Part shown: in pieces, positions 31,985 to 40,560 of the stretch | How the letters are laid out: every line of letters starts with the position of its first letter | How positions within the stretch are numbered: position 1 is the first letter of the stretch | From: Mobula hypostoma | Taxonomy: Eukaryota | Reading direction: 5' to 3' | DNA: 64,000 nt | NCBI RefSeq assembly: GCF_963921235.1 | Contig: NC_086108.1 | Span: forward strand, 63,986,001 to 64,050,000 | Translations under genes and position numbers: made by a program | The notes under the pieces: generated by a model | What the model saw: the letters and a program-made list of their open reading frames with translations, nothing else | Databases searched by the model: none | Told to the model about the DNA's origin: nothing

Positions 31985-33395
31985 TGGAGATACTTGCAGG
32001 GTTACAGCTCATTAAGATAGATAAATCCCCAGGGCCTGACTGAATGTATTCTCAGGCTTTATGGTAGGCTAGAGGGGAAATTGAGGAGGCCTCTGTAGGG
32101 ATATCGTTGGTCACTGGTGAAATTCCTAAAACTGGAAGGTGGCTAATGTTGTTGCATTGTTTAAGAAAAGTAGCAAGGACAAGCTGGGGAACTATAGTCT
32201 GGTCAACTGATGTCACTTGTGGGAAAGTAACTAGAAGTTCTTCTGAGGGACATGATCTACCATCATTTGGATAGACAGCATCTGATTGGTAGGAAACAGC
32301 ATGGTTTTGTTAATTCAAAATCATGTTTGAGAAACCTGCTAGAGTGTTTTTTGAAGAGATAACCAAAAAGGTAGACGAGTGAGGTCAGTGGAAGTTGTTG
32401 ATTTGGACTTTAGCAAGGCCCTTGACAAGGTCCCACATGGTAAACTGGTCTGGAAGGTTGGGTCCCATAGAATCCAAGTAGAATAGATTGGTGGATTCAA
32501 AATTGGCTTGGAGATAGGAAGCAGAGAGTTATGATTGAAGGTTTTTTTTTTAGAATGGAGGCTGATGAGTAGTGATGTGCCACAAGTTCAATGTTGGGAC
32601 TCTTGTTATTTGTTATTTATTCAAATAATCTGAGTGTGAATTCACAAGGCTTGATCGGTAAGTTTGTGTACGACATAAAATTAGGAGGTGGTGACGATAG
32701 TGAAGAAGGTAAGGTGGGAGCTTATATGGGAGGCAGGGTTTGAAGGTTGGCACAACATTGTGGGCCGAAGGGCCTGTACAATGCTGTACTATTCTATGTT
32801 CTATGTTCTATGTAATTGTAGATTACGGGGAGACCTTGATCGGTTAGGAAAGTGGGCCAAGGTGTAGCAAATATGTTTCAATACAGCTGATGCATTTTGG
32901 AAAGGCAAAACAGTGTAGGGCTTATATTATGGTTGATAAGGCACTAGGGAGTACAAGGGAACAAAGGGAGTTCATTAAAAGGTGCATCACAGGTGGTGAA
33001 AAAGGTATTTAGCATGCTGCACTTTATCAATCAGGGCATTGAGCATTGGAGATGAGACATTATGTTGCAGTTGTATGTCATTGCTGAGGAAGCATGGAGT
33101 ATTGATACAGTTTTGGTCACCCTTTTTGAGGGAAGATATGATTAAAATTGAAAGAATGCAGGGAAGATTTACTAGGACATCATTATGACTACAGGATCTG
33201 AGTTATAGGGAAGGGTGGCCAGGTGAGGTCTTTAATCCTTGGAATTCAGGAGAATGAAAAGCAACTTTATAGAAATGTTTAAAATTATGAAAGGGATAGA
33301 TAAGATGGATGATAGTCTATTTCCCCAGAGTAGGGAAGACCAAAATTGGGAAGCATAGATATAAGGTGAGAGAGGAAAAAAATTAAAAAGGACCA
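31985..33395 (+). mobile_element. Decayed CR1 RT region with a nested CR1 3' tail (~32711-32812); ends abruptly at the ERV LTR
   Basis: Motifs KSPGPD (~32023), QHGF (~32297) and DFSKALDKVPH (~32406). Nested (TTCTATG)n tail. Confidence 0.85.
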
Positions 33396-33397
33396 GG

Positions 33398-33584
33398 AAA
33401 GATCCAGCAACTATCAACAAACATTCTACAGATATTAACAGAGCTACAGGTTTTATTTTGTACAGATACTTCACAGACATTGCTGACTAACAGACCCTAC
33501 ATGCTACATGATTAGAAACAGCTCTGTTGTTATTTTGATCTTCCAGACATTCATCCAACATTTTACAAAATATAATATAACACA
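33398..33584 (-). repeat. ERV 3' LTR remnant (start of U3 only; the rest is deleted)
   Basis: ~185-bp direct repeat of 40378-40560 (about 80% identical by hand alignment), preceded on the minus strand by PPT-like AAGGGGTG at 33588-33595. Confidence 0.85.
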
Positions 33585-34125
33585 TTACACCCCTTGAATG
33601 TCTGGCAGGTTAAAGAGTCAAAGAACTCTTCCTCCTGCTTAAAATAAAGAATACATAATAATATCCCTTGGAGGATTAAAACTAATATTATCATGATCAT
33701 TGAAACCCGAGAAATTAAACAGATCTAAGAATTAACATTCATATTAGTTATGTAATGTATGTAGTTAGTATATGTACTCATCCTTAAGTGGGGGGGATGT
33801 CATTAACAATATCTTGTTGATAATTCAAACAGAATAAGATTTACAAACACTACATTGTGATCAGGGATGTAAAAGTCAAATTACAATCAATTTGGCACTT
33901 ATTTCACAGGAAAAAAAGTCATATGACACCAGTCACTTTCAGTTTACAACATTCCCTCACATTTATAGGTCCCCAATAGCAGATATCACATAATGTACGT
34001 TTTTTTTCCCAAAACAATAATGTAATTTTCACAAATCACAAGGTTATCAGTAGCTTGTAGGTCTCAACAGAAGTCTGACATCCAACAAAACAGAAGACAA
34101 ACATTAAAACAGAACAAAGCAACAT
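33563..34125 (-). pseudogene. Decayed small type I membrane protein gene in the env position of the ERV
   Basis: Acceptor tctctccacttttgtttttaaag| at 34138/34137. ATG at 34125 gives MLLCSVLMFVFCFVGC (signal-peptide-like). Frameshifted Cys-rich pieces follow. The C-terminal frame reads VSMIMIILVLILQGILLCILYF-KQEEEFFDSL... with a stop at 33563. Confidence 0.55.
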
Positions 34126-34176
34126 TCTGGCAGGAACCTTTAAAAACAAAAGTGGAGAGATAGTTAAAAAATGTTT

Positions 34177-35030
34177 TCATTTCCCCTTAATCAGTTTACC
34201 CTCATCCATACACACAGGATGGATCTATCCTCGTATCATCACCCAGTATGTACAGTATTTCCTTGTCCCTCGGCAATAATCTTGCCCTCCACTGGAGGGG
34301 AAGATGGCTATGTCACAAATACTTACCCGCCTTGTAAAACTGGCTTGGCTCTTTATCAGCACATTCAGTTATGCCATTGGGAACAAAAGGAATAGATTAT
34401 ACTTTCATCAACAAAAAGCGAGTGCCTCCTTTCAAGGGACGGTTATTCAAACTATACAAAGCACAGGGAAGGACAGGTAACCGACCAGATAAGGTATTTG
34501 CAAGAGTAAGTCAATGATTTCGATATTTTAATATGCCATTCATTCATTCAATCAGGCCACTGGGGACATGAAAGACCAACTATACACCATTAGACACTCC
34601 ACCCTTGTAGCATGGATCCTGACAAGTGCGAACCATTATCAGATTGAATTTGAAGGGGATCGCTGTACGCAGAAGCAAGATATTCTAATCCCGAAGGGTA
34701 CCATCCTGATTAGCTTTAACAGTAGGGATTGCCATCAGAAGTCCAGAATAAGTGCTCACCATAGTGAGGAGGTACTGGAATGGTTTCTGCAAAGGAAGGG
34801 GACTGTCAGAATCTATTTGTCAAATGTGAGCAGGGGCACGTCCACAGCATATGGCAGCCAAGTTTTGCTTCACGAGCTGGAGGTCCTTAATTTCTAAACA
34901 TAGGCCACAATTCCCTACTGCTTTACAAGCTATATTGGTGGGAAGAAATAATCCCCATTGCTTAGACCACTCCACGGTATCCTGTATCCCCAAATGACCA
35001 GAAGAACTCATGGACACTCCGAGCAAGTGG
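34177..35030 (-). pseudogene. pol: ERV integrase and Pol C-terminus
   Basis: HHCC remnant SGHLG...CGLC (ORF 34820-35026), QID...LLTMVSTYSG, IQSDNGSH, GLIE*MNGILK, and ERV-L-like tail EGKIIAEGQGN...KLIKGK*. Confidence 0.9.
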
Positions 35031-35191
35031 TAATAATGGTATCTGAAGCTCAGGGCTAGATGTCACTGAGTCAACACAAGCGAGTTTGTCCTCAATGTTG
35101 TTAATGTTGTCATCTGCGGATCAACTTTCAAATGAGCGTCGACATGGTAAACTGTACTGTGATGATTAGTTGCAAACATCCTTCCATAGCT

Positions 35192-36525
35192 TCACTCCCC
35201 ATAAGGGACGGCCCTTAACAGTAAAAGACTGCTCGTTCCACTGGGACAACCAGAAAACAGCCCAAGAATTGCTGTATGTACTATATGGGTTTCTTTGGCT
35301 TCATGCATAATGACAGTATGAACTGCTATAAGCTCCGTATATTGACTCAACCCATCAGAGCCTTCCTTCTTTAGAACTTGTTGGGTGAGAGGATTAAATG
35401 CAGCAGCCTTCGAACAATGACAGCCATTCTTCCATATCCCAGAGCCACCAGTGAACCAGGCCTGGGGCTGAGCAGGAGTCAGAAGATCAAAGGGACTGCC
35501 CCACACAGAAGGTGAGGCTTCGACTGGAGTAGCTTCGGGGTTGGGGTCTCAGCAACCAGTTCATGTATTTAATTAATTCCCTTTGATGCTGGTTCAGAAA
35601 TATACCAGTTCCATTTGACAAATGAACACTATTGTTCATGCCCTATCTTATGAGTGGGTGTGTCAGAGAGTGCCCATCCCAAAATGAGAAGGTCAGGGCA
35701 GAGAGAGATGAGAACATCACCCGTCTGTGTTTCAGTTTCCACCAAAGCCCAGTAGCAGGCAATGAGTTGTTTCTCAAACTCAGTGTATCTGGTGGCAGCA
35801 TTAGGAAGCTTTCGGGACCAGAAACCCAGTGGCAAGTTCTATACTCCATGCTTCTTTCTCAGGCTCCAGGCTGTCTCATCATCTCTAACACAAGCTTGCA
35901 GTTCAAAGGGGTTCCCTCTTGACGAGGAGAGAGGGGTAAGGCCATGGGAACGGTCTCCTTTACAGCCTCAAAAGCTAATTGTTGCTTAGGGCTAAATTCC
36001 TTTTAGTCACAGTGTACCTGCACAAGGGTCTGATGAGCATAGTCAAATGGGTTATGTGGCACCGCCAGTATCCCAAAAGGCAAACAAAGCATTGGGCTTT
36101 TTGTTTTGTCGTAGGGGGAGCGATGTCTAGGATCTTATTTCTGAATTTATCAGGAATCATCCTATCACCGTTAGTCCATTGTATTCCCAGAAAATGAACA
36201 GTTGTAGCTGGGCCCTGTACTTTATTGGGGTTAATTCCCCATCTCCTCGATCACATGTGATCAAAGTATTAAGGTCTTCAGAAGCCGCCTCTTCAGAGGA
36301 CCCCTACAATAGCACTTCATCTCTGTAGTGAGCTATGTTAATGGTAGAGCACAGGACATAATCATGCAAACTCTGTGCCACAACACTATAGTGAATAGTA
36401 TGACTATGGACATATTCTTGTGGAAATTGTGTAAAGGTGTACTGAAGGACATTCTATGTAAAAGCAAACTGATCTAGGGATCAGGAAAAGGGATGAAGAT
36501 GAAGGTATTAGCCAATCAATCACAT
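35192..36525 (-). pseudogene. pol: ERV RT core, tether and RNase H
   Basis: QFAFT..QYTFTQFPQEYVHS, HYRDE (decayed YxDD), INPNKVQGPA, and ORFs 35975-36160, 35629-35835 and 35192-35506. Confidence 0.9.
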
Positions 36526-36526
36526 A

Positions 36527-37280
36527 GGCTGTTTTCTAAAGGGGGAGAAAATTCAAAAATCCAAGGTGCAAAGGGACTTGGGAGTCCTCATACAGGATTC
36601 CCTAAAGGTTAATTTACAGGTTGAGTCAGTAGTGAGGAAGGCAAATGCAGTGTTAGCATTAATTTCGAGAGGACTAGAATATGAAAACAAGGATGCAATG
36701 CTGAGGCTTTATAAGGCACTGGTGAGGCCTCACTTGGAGTATTGTGAGCAGTTTTGAGCTCTGTTTTTAAGAAAGGATGTGCTAACATTGAAGAGGGTTC
36801 AGAGGAGGTTCACAAGAATGATGCCAGGAATAAAAAGCTTATTGTATGAGGAGTGATTGGGCCTTTATGCATCGAGGAGAAGAATGAGGGGGGTCTCATT
36901 GAAAATTATTGAATGTTGAAAGCCTTCGATAAAGTGGATGTGGAGAGGATGTTTCCTATGGTAGAGGAGTCGAGAACCTGAGAGCACAGCCTCAGAATAG
37001 AGTGATGTCCTTTAAGAACAAAGATGAGGAGGAATTTCTTTAGCCAGAGGGTGTTGAATCTGTGGAAATCATTTCCACAGGCAGCTGTGGAGGCCATGTT
37101 ATTGGGTGCATTTAAGGCGGAGGTTGATAGGTTCTTGATTTATCCGGGCGTGAAAGGTTATGGGAAGAAGGTAGAAGAATGGGGTTGAGAAGGAAATGGA
37201 TCAGGCATGATGAAATGGCGGAGCAGACTCGATGGGCTGAATGGCTTAATTCTTCTCCTATGTCTTATGGTCTTATGTTC
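36527..37280 (+). mobile_element. CR1 3' fragment inserted into ERV RT
   Basis: ORF 36566-36757 (QRDLGV...LVRPHLEYC) and tail tcttatggtcttatg. Confidence 0.92.
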
Positions 37281-37367
37281 TCAGTTCTACTAAACCCTCA
37301 ATCAGGGTCACAACATTTGAACAGCTGTGGCCTGCACAGAGGAAAACCAACTTAACTGACGATAATC

Positions 37368-38197
37368 GGATAGATAGATAGATAGATAGATAGATATACT
37401 TTATTAATCCCGAGGGAAATTTGGTTTCGTTACAACCGCACCAACGAAGAATAGAGCGTAAATATAGCAATACAAAAAAACCCAGCAATCAAACACCAAA
37501 ATGCAAACTATGCCAAATGGAAAATAAGTCCAGGACCAGTCTATTGGCTCAGGGTGTCTGACCCTCCACGGGAGGAGCTGCACGTTCGATGGCCACAGGC
37601 AGGAACGACGTCCCGTGCTGCCAAGTGTTGTATCACGGTGGAATGTGGCCGAAGTCCAACAGTAAAAAGTTCAATATCCAGTCTGCAAACACGTTCCTCG
37701 ATCATAATATACCCCGGATTGCACCATCCTTTGTTAGCCAGAACAGTAAGCACCCAACTCCTTTACGCTTACCGCTCTCAGTGCACTTCCGTTCAGCCGG
37801 AACGGTATTACCCACCAAACTCCTCTTCTCCAAAAGTCTCTGTTGTCTCAACCCGGTCCTCTTTCCTCAGCTTTGTGATCCCCCTCTGTGTGTTTTCCTC
37901 TGGATTTCAGCAGGGGTGTCCGCCGCTCTGTTCGCTAAGCCGGCCGGTATTTGCTGGTCCGCAGAATTCACAATGCGACCTTGCTTCTGTCCCGCGTGTT
38001 GGGATGTAACCATTTCCAGCGCTAAAGAAGACCCAAATAAAACTCTCTCTACCAGCATGTCAGAGAGGGTGCAGCTTCGACATTTTACCGTGAGAAAAAA
38101 ATACAAAAAATAACATAAATTAAAAAGTAAGAAGAAGAAAGTAAGAATAGATCGGAACGGCTGTACCAGGCTGCATGCACGACCGACGCATGCACAC
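37368..38197 (-). mobile_element. Internally deleted Rex1/Babar-derived non-autonomous element retaining both ends
   Basis: TSD TAATC at 37363-37367 and 38198-38202, (TATC)n tail, and an endonuclease fragment (ORF 37541-37753 LANKGWC...DIELFTVGLRP) next to a C-terminal SFLPVAI motif. Confidence 0.8.
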
Positions 38198-38289
38198 TAA
38201 TCAATGGTTATACACCAAGAACCATCAGGTTTCTGGGATGCCAGTAATAAGGGTTGCCATAGCAACAGCAGCGGTCCCAGAACCCTGGC

Positions 38290-39803
38290 CATACCTAGGT
38301 GACAGGCTGAGTTAACCTGCCATGCAGGGTCCAATTCACCCACATCTGGATATAACCAGGGAATGTCCTTCTTTTGAAATTAACTTTACATTCCAGGGTA
38401 GACCAGTCCCTCTATCTGGGCTATTAAATGCAATCCACCTGGGTCACAATGTTCATGATATAACACACAAAGAACATCAAGAGACACACCATCATTTTCT
38501 TCAGCAGGGATAGAACCATTTCCTTTCTACTAAGCGGGAAGAGGAGCTCCTTGATATCGACTGCTAAGGCACAGTCATGGCTGCTTTGAAGCATTCCTAG
38601 TTCCATTAATTAGGCACTAAGAATTCCCTATTGCTGCCAGAATTTAGAAGAGCCTTAGCCTGCACCTGTTCCCAATCTACATCTGACCCTTCAAGTTGGG
38701 CCAATAGATTGCTAGTTTCTGCCACAGTCTGACACTCAGCTGGCCCTCACAGAGCCAGCAAGATGATTCTTCACCATGAAGGTCCCCATTCTATCAATCA
38801 GGCGCACATACCAAGGGAAAGGGGTCAGCATCAGGGCTATTAAAGGCATTCTTATTATTATAAATGTCAGATTGCATTGCCATATCATGGAGGCATGAAA
38901 TAACCTCCAGCGGGGTTTTCCAAGGATGAGGAGATGCATCTGAATCCAAAGGGGCAGGGTAGAGAGCACAGACAGCTTGTATGACCATTGTCCACAGGAA
39001 CCGTTCAGCTCTGTTATCCAGACCCTAACTGAATCAATTCATGCACATTAAAAAACTGACGGGAAGCTACAGAAACCTATAGGCAGGTGTGCCAGCTGGG
39101 CAAGGATTCCCCTGGCCGCTGATGGAGCCTTTGGGCTAAATCCTGTAACTCAGCGATGGTGTAGTTGTGGATAGTGGTCTCAGTTGTGGTAGGGTCAGTC
39201 ACTGGAGCTTGATTTTGTTCATCAGCATTCTGGAGGTCCTCTTTAACTTTTACATGTCTGAGGGGGTGCACTTCCATCCTCAACTGAATCATCATCATAT
39301 CAGGTGTCTCCAACCCAAGTACCTGAGTCCCAGTTCTGCAGGACCATAGATCGTACCTTTACAGGATCCACCACCATGTGCCTGTGCTGCATGCAGCACT
39401 TTTACACCATCATAGCCACTCTACATGCCACAGAAACCTGTTTCGTTTCAGAACGTTCAGCACGTTCTTGCACTGCACATTGTTGTTTCACTTAAAGTAG
39501 TGTCAACAAAACTCGAAAAGGCCAACTTGCACTGCATTTGGTTGTCTTCCACTGAGAGTTCAGCTGTTTCAGTACTCAACTGCTACAATAAGTCATAAAA
39601 ATCTACCTTACTTGAGGCAGAAAATCCCTCCTGGAGGGAAAAACTATATGCTTAAGGCATTGTGATACTACACATGGAAATTTAACATCAGACAATTCAG
39701 TAAGTACCTTCTCCCAACATCTGGGAGGACCCCATTTACTCAGAACATTAGCCAGTGATTCAAAACCCTCAGAGTTATCCATGCTTTCAGGGAGGTGAAT
39801 CAT
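38290..39803 (-). pseudogene. gag: ERV gag (class III-like), decayed
   Basis: ORFs 39603-39803 (LANVLSKWGPP..W), 39077-39313 (YTIAELQDLAQRLHQRPGESLPSW) and 38794-38988 (PWKTPLEVISCLHDMAM...PDADPF). No CCHC knuckle seen. Confidence 0.75.
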
Positions 39804-39835: not shown

Positions 39836-39853
39836 ACCCTGTTTGCAGCGCCA
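39836..39853 (-). promoter_or_regulatory. Primer-binding site, tRNA-Ser-like
   Basis: TGGCGCTGCAAACAGGGT begins 3 nt after the LTR-terminal CA. It matches 15/18 to the complement of the vertebrate tRNA-Ser(UGA) 3' end (TGGCGCAGCGAGCAGGGT, recalled from memory). Confidence 0.7.
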
Positions 39854-39856
39854 AGG

Positions 39857-40560
39857 TGCTGGATTAATCTATTGACTGTTCAAAAGATGTGGTTATAAGC
39901 ACAATAAAGTAACTTAAGCTTAATTTAGTATCATAAAATAGAAAGCATGAATAAACCATACAAAATACTACAGAGCAGGCAATAAAGTTTTCTGCAAGGC
40001 CTAAAGATTTCAGGGCTCACGATTGTTAGTAACCACTTGATTGTTGTTGTTGGGGGAACTCCGAATTCAGACTAGCTCGTGAAACCGCCTCAGGTCCTAA
40101 ACACTAGCTATTTCCAGTCCTTGGTTGGAGTCTAATGAAGCTGGGAAAGGAACCCCCATTAATACAAGTTTTAAAAGCACAAAGGCACACGGAGACAGAC
40201 AAACTCTTCGATCTTTTGTGTCAACACAGCCTATTTTTTTCAAATACATTCTGTGGCTTACAGAAGGGCATTAATGTTTACATATAAGCGATAAGCCCAA
40301 ATCCCAAAATAATCCATCAAGGGAACTATCAAACTGCTTGACAGATATTTGCATTTTAATGATGGCTGAGACTAAGAAAGAATCCAGCTACTATCAGCAA
40401 ACATTCTACAGACGTTAATAGACCTACAGTGTTTATCTCGCACAGACACAACACAAACATTACCCACTAACAGACACACATGCTACAAGAACAGAAAGAG
40501 CTAAATTGTCATTCTGACCTTCCAGACATTCCTCCATTTTACAAACTGTGATATAAAACA
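39857..40560 (-). repeat. ERV 5' LTR (~704 bp)
   Basis: The minus strand starts TGTTTTATAT and ends AATCCAGCA, adjacent to the PBS. The first ~185 nt are homologous to 33398-33584. Confidence 0.8.

Follow-up and report, generated by a model that had tools for sequence, protein, structure and literature searches.

A split, coding-derived relic with signal-peptide-like, cysteine and transmembrane segments in the env position of an endogenous retrovirus family of Mobula hypostoma

Results

Between pol and the 3' LTR of an endogenous retrovirus (ERV) located in the window, i.e. the whole 64,000-nt stretch of DNA that was analysed, we found a coding-derived relic with a signal-peptide-like segment, cysteines and a transmembrane segment. 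It occupies the env position throughout the ERV family, has no detectable relatives and is split once. Further in the text this interval is referred to as the slot; all features described below lie on the minus strand. The original prediction placed a small spliced gene for a signal-peptide, Cys-rich, transmembrane protein here. Its sites and layout were recovered, and the layout, the short slot and the splice motifs proved to be family-wide, but a single ORF of ~190 codons was not seen in any of the 34 copies that cover the slot.

Structure of the element

The ERV with its LTRs occupies positions ~40560-33390 of the window. The start of the 5' LTR (39855..40560) was placed from nine two-LTR copies. 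The truncated 3' LTR (33390..33582) repeats the start of the 5' LTR, the identity between them in the window being 155/193 aligned bases. The primer binding site (39836..39853) is complementary to the 3' end of a tRNA-Ser (CGA/TGA) gene, with two mismatches to the tRNA-Ser(CGA/TGA) genes of the same genome. In two-LTR copies the LTR begins immediately after the polypurine tract (PPT; 33583..33596). Upstream of the 5' LTR, a short run of purines (40571-40561) aligns with the PPT preceding the 3' LTR; this may reflect a former tandem arrangement or be coincidental.

The gag-pro-pol region (34177..39800) is decayed. RT_RNaseH Pfam matches in the window pol are below the cut-off, and the RT piece of the element has 149 matching places in the genome. 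Foreign DNA is inserted into pol at ~38190-36480. This insertion consists of an opposite-strand piece, which we take to be LINE-like, and other DNA with a TATC repeat at its end; a part of the latter has 73% identity to locus L088.

Copies, length and age of the slot family

The slot DNA yielded 42 matches besides itself with 72–82% identity (40 of 118 candidates scored). The natural 111-aa frame of copy L028, which opens at the ATG overlapping the pol stop, gave 103 genome matches among 150 scored, some of them being pieces of the same locus. The family alignment contained 55 copies, and the slot length was determined from the 34 copies that cover the slot fully. In all 34 the distance from pol to the 3' LTR is 525–600 nt (median 571), and longer pol-LTR gaps in other copies resemble private insertions. 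The short slot is thus a property of the family, and a deletion private to the window copy is ruled out. A longer standard SU/TM env, which the original prediction had considered for the sister copies, was not found among them: no covered slot exceeds 600 nt, and gamma-type Env gave no match.

The tree of the 35 best-covered copies (of 55) is star-like, with the mean terminal branch of 0.15 substitutions per site, and the LTR pairs of family copies are mostly 70–86% identical. Hence the family is a single old burst followed by neutral decay. On the RT tree (75 of 101 loci) a single clade, with a stem support of only 0.745, unites the slot-bearing copies and is separate from the clades with gamma-type env. 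The best matches of the RT from the relative L031 are retroviral RTs (8e-31; Pr125Pol, 3e-25), with Ty3 weaker (9e-16). The RT and RNase H motifs of the family are presumably ERV-L-like. No fixed stop common to the 55 copies was found in the 3' part of the integrase (the last ~257 pol codons).

Two related arrangements were observed in the course of this survey. L074 (G000:C40 64816800-64826799) is a permuted copy with the order LTR fragment, pol end, slot, LTR, primer site, gag, and it adjoins an env remnant from another ERV clade. A young, near-identical pol-related family is present on small contigs (L036-L038, L129, L130); downstream of its integrase a piece of the integrase is repeated, alongside short unexplained frames, and the gamma-type Env profile gave no match there.

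Two reading frames in the slot

The slot contains two long reading frames. The 5' frame (33850..34125) encodes a predicted signal peptide, a cysteine-rich stretch and an N-glycosylation sequon. The 3' frame (33563..33880) encodes a sequon, one predicted transmembrane helix and a short tail ending just within U3. Shared non-CpG stops are absent from the former between 34189 and 33852 (~110 codons) and from the latter between 33883 and ~33589-33574 (~100 codons). The exceptions are TGA codons at places where other copies have CGA or CAA, as CpG decay would produce. In contrast, the off-frames of the slot contain one shared stop per ~8–10 codons. Kyte-Doolittle hydropathy reaches 1.5–2.4 at the N-terminus of the 5' frame and 2.7–3.4 in the 3' frame, and hydrophobic stretches are confined to the start of the former and a region near the end of the latter.

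In dinucleotide shuffles of the slot, one run of at least 100 codons occurred in 48 of 5000 cases and two such runs in none of 5000. The longest run in 21 LTR copies, used as a non-coding control, was 64 codons at most. The modal length of the intervals between alignment anchors is divisible by three in 12 of 13 intervals, although two intervals are based on 5 copies each and one has only a weak mode. The slot is therefore derived from coding sequence, and both frames are far too long for chance.

Most individual pieces named in the original prediction are present: the ATG at 34125 gives MLLCSVLMFVFCFVGCQTS, the segments NLVICENY, TLCDICYWGPINVRECCK and NKCQIDCNLT are as described, and the last open frame (33724-33563) with its hydrophobic run crosses the PPT into U3, the 3' LTR starting near 33582. 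The exception is DWCH, which was taken as a segment of the gene but is off-frame, among shared stops and outside the open frame of the family.

Break between the two halves

The two frames are separated by a break (33852..33912) which comprises a phase change, two shared stops and a 5-nt block. The thirteenth anchor interval is 26 nt long in 30 of 34 copies (40 of 45 in a larger set), and because of this spacing the two halves are in different frames. The phase break common to the family is located between ~33889 and 33852. Just upstream of the 26-nt interval is the 5-nt block, which 26 copies have and 20, including the window copy, lack. Where the block is present, the 5' frame ends at a shared stop; where it is absent, the halves share phase, but the shared stops at 33889 and 33883 intervene. 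The block does not sort the copies into subfamilies on the star tree (35 of 55 copies), where both states are interleaved.

A single continuous ORF across the slot was found in 0 of 34 fully covered copies, and the longest stop-free run was 100 codons. Since no examined copy has a single ORF, the whole slot protein is one that we infer. Of the frameshifts between the segments noted in the original prediction, not all are due to decay: one, at ~33889-33852, is common to the family. Given that the integrase is open without a shared lesion and the slot is broken, the source elements carried an open integrase frame and a slot gene broken at one spot. A programmed −1 frameshift is an unlikely explanation of the break, as there is no shared slippery site and slippery heptamers occur only three times among 48 copies.

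Pairwise dN/dS was 0.85 and 0.63 in the open frames, 0.52–0.68 in the off-frames and 0.74 in the integrase. Neither dN/dS nor codon-position tests gave a signal of selection among the copies, and the integrase control gave none either. The comparison of dN/dS among copies suggested by the original prediction is thus uninformative, because all copies are decayed and their differences arose after insertion.

Start codons and splice motifs

The pol stop codon TGA (34179-34177) shares bases with an ATG that is in frame with the slot gene (34177..34180). This ATG, at 34180, is retained in 29 of 35 alignment rows (as ATGA in 22) and lies 18 codons upstream of the ATG at 34125, which is retained in 24 of 35 rows. 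In the window copy a private extra base masks the former. The pol stop is followed, as described originally, by a branch point, a pyrimidine tract and an AG acceptor (34138..34168, the AG ending at 34138). An acceptor-like site at 34138 is present in 34 of 45 copies; AAG/G occurs in 20 of 32 copies and a YTRAY branch motif in 21 of 32, and the tract is 82% pyrimidines. As the ATG at 34180 is upstream of the acceptor, a spliced RNA would start at 34125. The env-bearing pol relatives L031 and L035 also have an acceptor and then an ATG directly past the pol stop.

The candidate major splice donor within the LTR (40015..40020), noted originally at 40020, was confirmed, with GTRAG in 16 of 26 and GT in 19 of 26 LTR copies. 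Most of 21 LTR copies have a poly(A)-like hexamer downstream of this motif. The retention rates of the splice motifs correspond to neutral decay and show that the source carried these candidate motifs. Within the slot (here ~640 nt) five donor-like and seven acceptor-like sites are shared. One internal pair consists of a donor-like site at 33960 (28 of 50 copies) and an acceptor-like site at 33813 (19 of 43), with an ATG near 33810 in 23 of 43 copies.

Comparison with Env and database searches

The gamma-type Env profile detected decayed envs in 14 of 60 pol-related loci. Applied to the slot halves, it gave hhalign values of 0.4% and 1.0%. Because a profile that is effective on decayed envs misses both halves, the 3' half cannot be recognised as the C-terminus of an Env. 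The halves also had no match at E<0.9 to the Env proteins of this genome. In the slot-family loci, gamma-type Env matches were found in two distinct places (70 loci); neither lies within a slot element, and both match env-bearing clades.

In agreement with the original prediction, no furin site, fusion peptide or CX6CC is present in the natural frames: inspection by eye and hydropathy revealed neither a furin motif nor an internal hydrophobic peptide, and the slot has 525–600 nt versus the more than 400 aa of a gamma-type Env. Seen by eye, each half bears a faint resemblance to gamma-type TM: the 5' half contains a C-X10-CC, the 3' half an IPD...NxT stretch. The C-X10-CC stands alone, as the gamma-type combination of an immunosuppressive domain (ISD) with CX6CC/CXnCC and a heptad region was not found in the slot.

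In L034, a member of an env-bearing clade, env stops right after the CWIC motif and is followed by the LTR, which is an ordinary env deletion. A different young ERV family (L092-L094, L096, L097, L099, L101-L103, L105) has open Env frames of up to ~560 aa; in L103 and at one further place integrase runs on into Env as a continuous frame, with 972 and 968 aa open.

Pfam gave nothing significant for the slot halves, and 28 natural pieces had no match to another viral fusion family (foamy Env, paramyxo/pneumo F of lokiretroviruses) at E≤1. The search of the genome with the PF00523 profile produced no match anywhere, controls included. Short decayed queries limit the power of these comparisons. 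Nothing significant was found for the slot pieces among PDB sequences and phages, nor did searches of the protein collections yield a homologue of the 5' or the 3' half. The 1.84 billion representatives were searched with the 5' half, and the sole match was a 4401-aa repeat protein whose score is the sum of at least 12 stretches, each of at most 4.3 bits; it was rejected as a repeat artefact. Matches of 18 and 15 residues in metagenome and viral contigs were taken as chance.

The AlphaFold model of the 5' half (pLDDT 54) is uninformative as to the fold and confident only in the two N-terminal helices, and the best Foldseek hit of this model has E 5.4. No host parent gene or known domain was identified; all those of the 103 genome matches that were opened are ERV copies. 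A spliced, divergent host parent could escape the genome search.

In the literature searched (Repbase, most subscription papers and supplements excluded), no earlier description of the family or of the slot was found. The accessible parts of PMC12287698, PMC6001957 and PMC8672886 contain nothing about an env slot of this kind.

Comparison with known systems

According to the accessible text of PMC8278194, XtERV-S from Xenopus tropicalis combines class III gag-pol with a gamma-type env. The slot family resembles it in the tRNA-Ser primer site, in the −1 frame overlap between the pol stop and the start of the slot, and in a signal peptide of ~19 residues. A donor is predicted within the LTR in both, so that the spliced RNA lacks the primer site; in the slot family this is indicated by motifs only. 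In XtERV-S the env is intact and encodes an SU/TM of 441 aa, in which CWIC, a furin-like site, ISD and CX6CC are all present (PMC8278194), whereas the slot has ~570 nt, none of these four features is detectable in it, and it is split in all copies examined.

CrocERV31, an ERV that belongs to neither class I nor class II and is believed to have spread by retrotransposition, carries nectin3, a membrane-protein gene, in place of env; this is a recognisable host gene, ~76% identical and under purifying selection (PMC4299795). For the slot family, unlike CrocERV31, no parent, domain or selection signal was found.

In encoding a small, predicted single-pass membrane protein while lacking env, the element also resembles those with sORF2 (insect LTR retrotransposons) and brings to mind the reovirus FAST proteins; the hallmarks of sORF2 and FAST are N-myristoylation and a polybasic tail (PMC11952523). 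The slot hydropathy would fit the single helix of a FAST-type protein of 100–200 aa, but the whole protein is present in no examined copy. Unlike FAST and sORF2, neither slot start gives MG, and there is no polybasic patch past the membrane helix (1–3 K/R versus 0–4 D/E up to 15 residues past it in the 12 of 15 pieces scored). The slot also differs in having a predicted signal peptide, cysteines and sequons, and the backbone is retroviral rather than Ty3/Gypsy. By the features tested, the slot product is neither a gamma-type Env nor a FAST protein.

The degradation of env accompanied by spread within cells has been described, e.g. for ERVs such as IAP (PMC10536682). The slot family shares with IAP-type ERVs the many copies, the star-like burst, the defective env position and pol without a shared lesion, and differs from them in a slot remnant that is untraceable to any known Env. 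The slot family works like an env-replaced or env-degraded ERV.

Discussion

We tentatively favour, at slightly under an even chance, the reading that the slot holds the remains of one short gene for a protein of ~180 residues, predicted to be a single-pass glycoprotein of the cell surface, and that this gene took the place of env and was split before the family spread. This reading is backed by the acceptor-then-ATG layout shared with the env-bearing L031 and L035 and by the position of the slot family in its own RT clade. Against it, an out-of-phase junction is also expected from an internal deletion. By analogy with the XtERV-S env, a subgenomic mRNA would arise by splicing that joins the LTR donor with the acceptor past the pol stop, and the protein would be routed via the ER to the cell surface. 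It is likely not a virion fusogen, because the parts of a class I fusion protein are absent; that it was an adhesion or cell-to-cell helper is a guess, and on balance an improbable one. After the gene broke, the family likely multiplied in germ cells by retrotransposition, for which Gag-Pol would suffice, and every copy would afterwards have decayed neutrally.

The original prediction offered two alternatives, a novel or captured protein and an env of unknown type with an internal deletion. Its interpretation is partly supported overall, and both alternatives are candidate readings. The latter appears unlikely on the present evidence, while deserving serious weight: a long Env would have been internally deleted so that the signal peptide and SU start were joined out of frame to the TM end, and the env-defective element would then have amplified intracellularly. 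The slot sits exactly in the place of env with the env splice layout, the only shared break coincides with the expected place of a deletion junction, the same genome contains an env-deleted member of another clade (L034), and env degradation with intracellular spread has a precedent (PMC10536682). The C-X10-CC and IPD...NxT stretches may be counted in its favour as well, since CXnCC variants are described for fish Envs; in the portion of that source available to us they always occur together with an ISD (bioRxiv 2021.11.23.469661). However, neither an ISD nor a furin motif was seen by eye in the natural frames, neither half matches the gamma-type Env of the same genome, Pfam or PDB, and no longer parent exists among the 34 covered slots, longer gaps looking like private insertions.

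We consider it improbable that the split was designed, with a short protein, secreted or anchored by its signal peptide, made from the unspliced slot, and a membrane form made by way of an internal splice or of the ATG near 33810. All parts of the break (phase change, two shared stops, 5-nt block) lie between 33960 and 33813, and in our reading of the sequence these two sites are at codon boundaries of their frames. But both sites appear to fit the splice consensus weakly, such a pair easily arises by chance among the many shared donor- and acceptor-like sites, and the frames remain open far into the supposed intron on both sides. A programmed −1 shift is unlikely as well, slippery heptamers being rare. 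Still more doubtful is an extension of this idea, an orphan glycoprotein in two forms, one secreted and cysteine-rich and the other an internally spliced membrane protein, serving cell-to-cell passage without a fusion envelope; it would be a vertebrate parallel of the insect sORF2. Finally, non-coding T-rich DNA encoding hydrophobic peptides by chance, which the original prediction associated with the lack of a continuous ORF, is a very remote explanation. The continuous ORF is indeed absent, the slot is 39% T, no homologue was found and no copy is intact, and shuffles do produce single long runs, but the two halves are too long for chance: the double run never appeared in the shuffles, the LTR control stayed at or below 64 codons, and all but one of the anchor intervals keep a period of three. 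We regard this explanation as largely refuted.

Retroviruses that lose env are thought to become simply intracellular retrotransposons. To our knowledge, the few known replacements of env are recognisable host genes. The weight of the present case is limited: the copies examined are all dead, the source elements already carried a split gene, and the function proposed for it is a guess. If the favoured reading of a short surface glycoprotein gene is true, an orphan small surface protein in the env expression slot would be a new kind of passenger of a cartilaginous-fish ERV, and it might hint at envelope-free spread in vertebrates.
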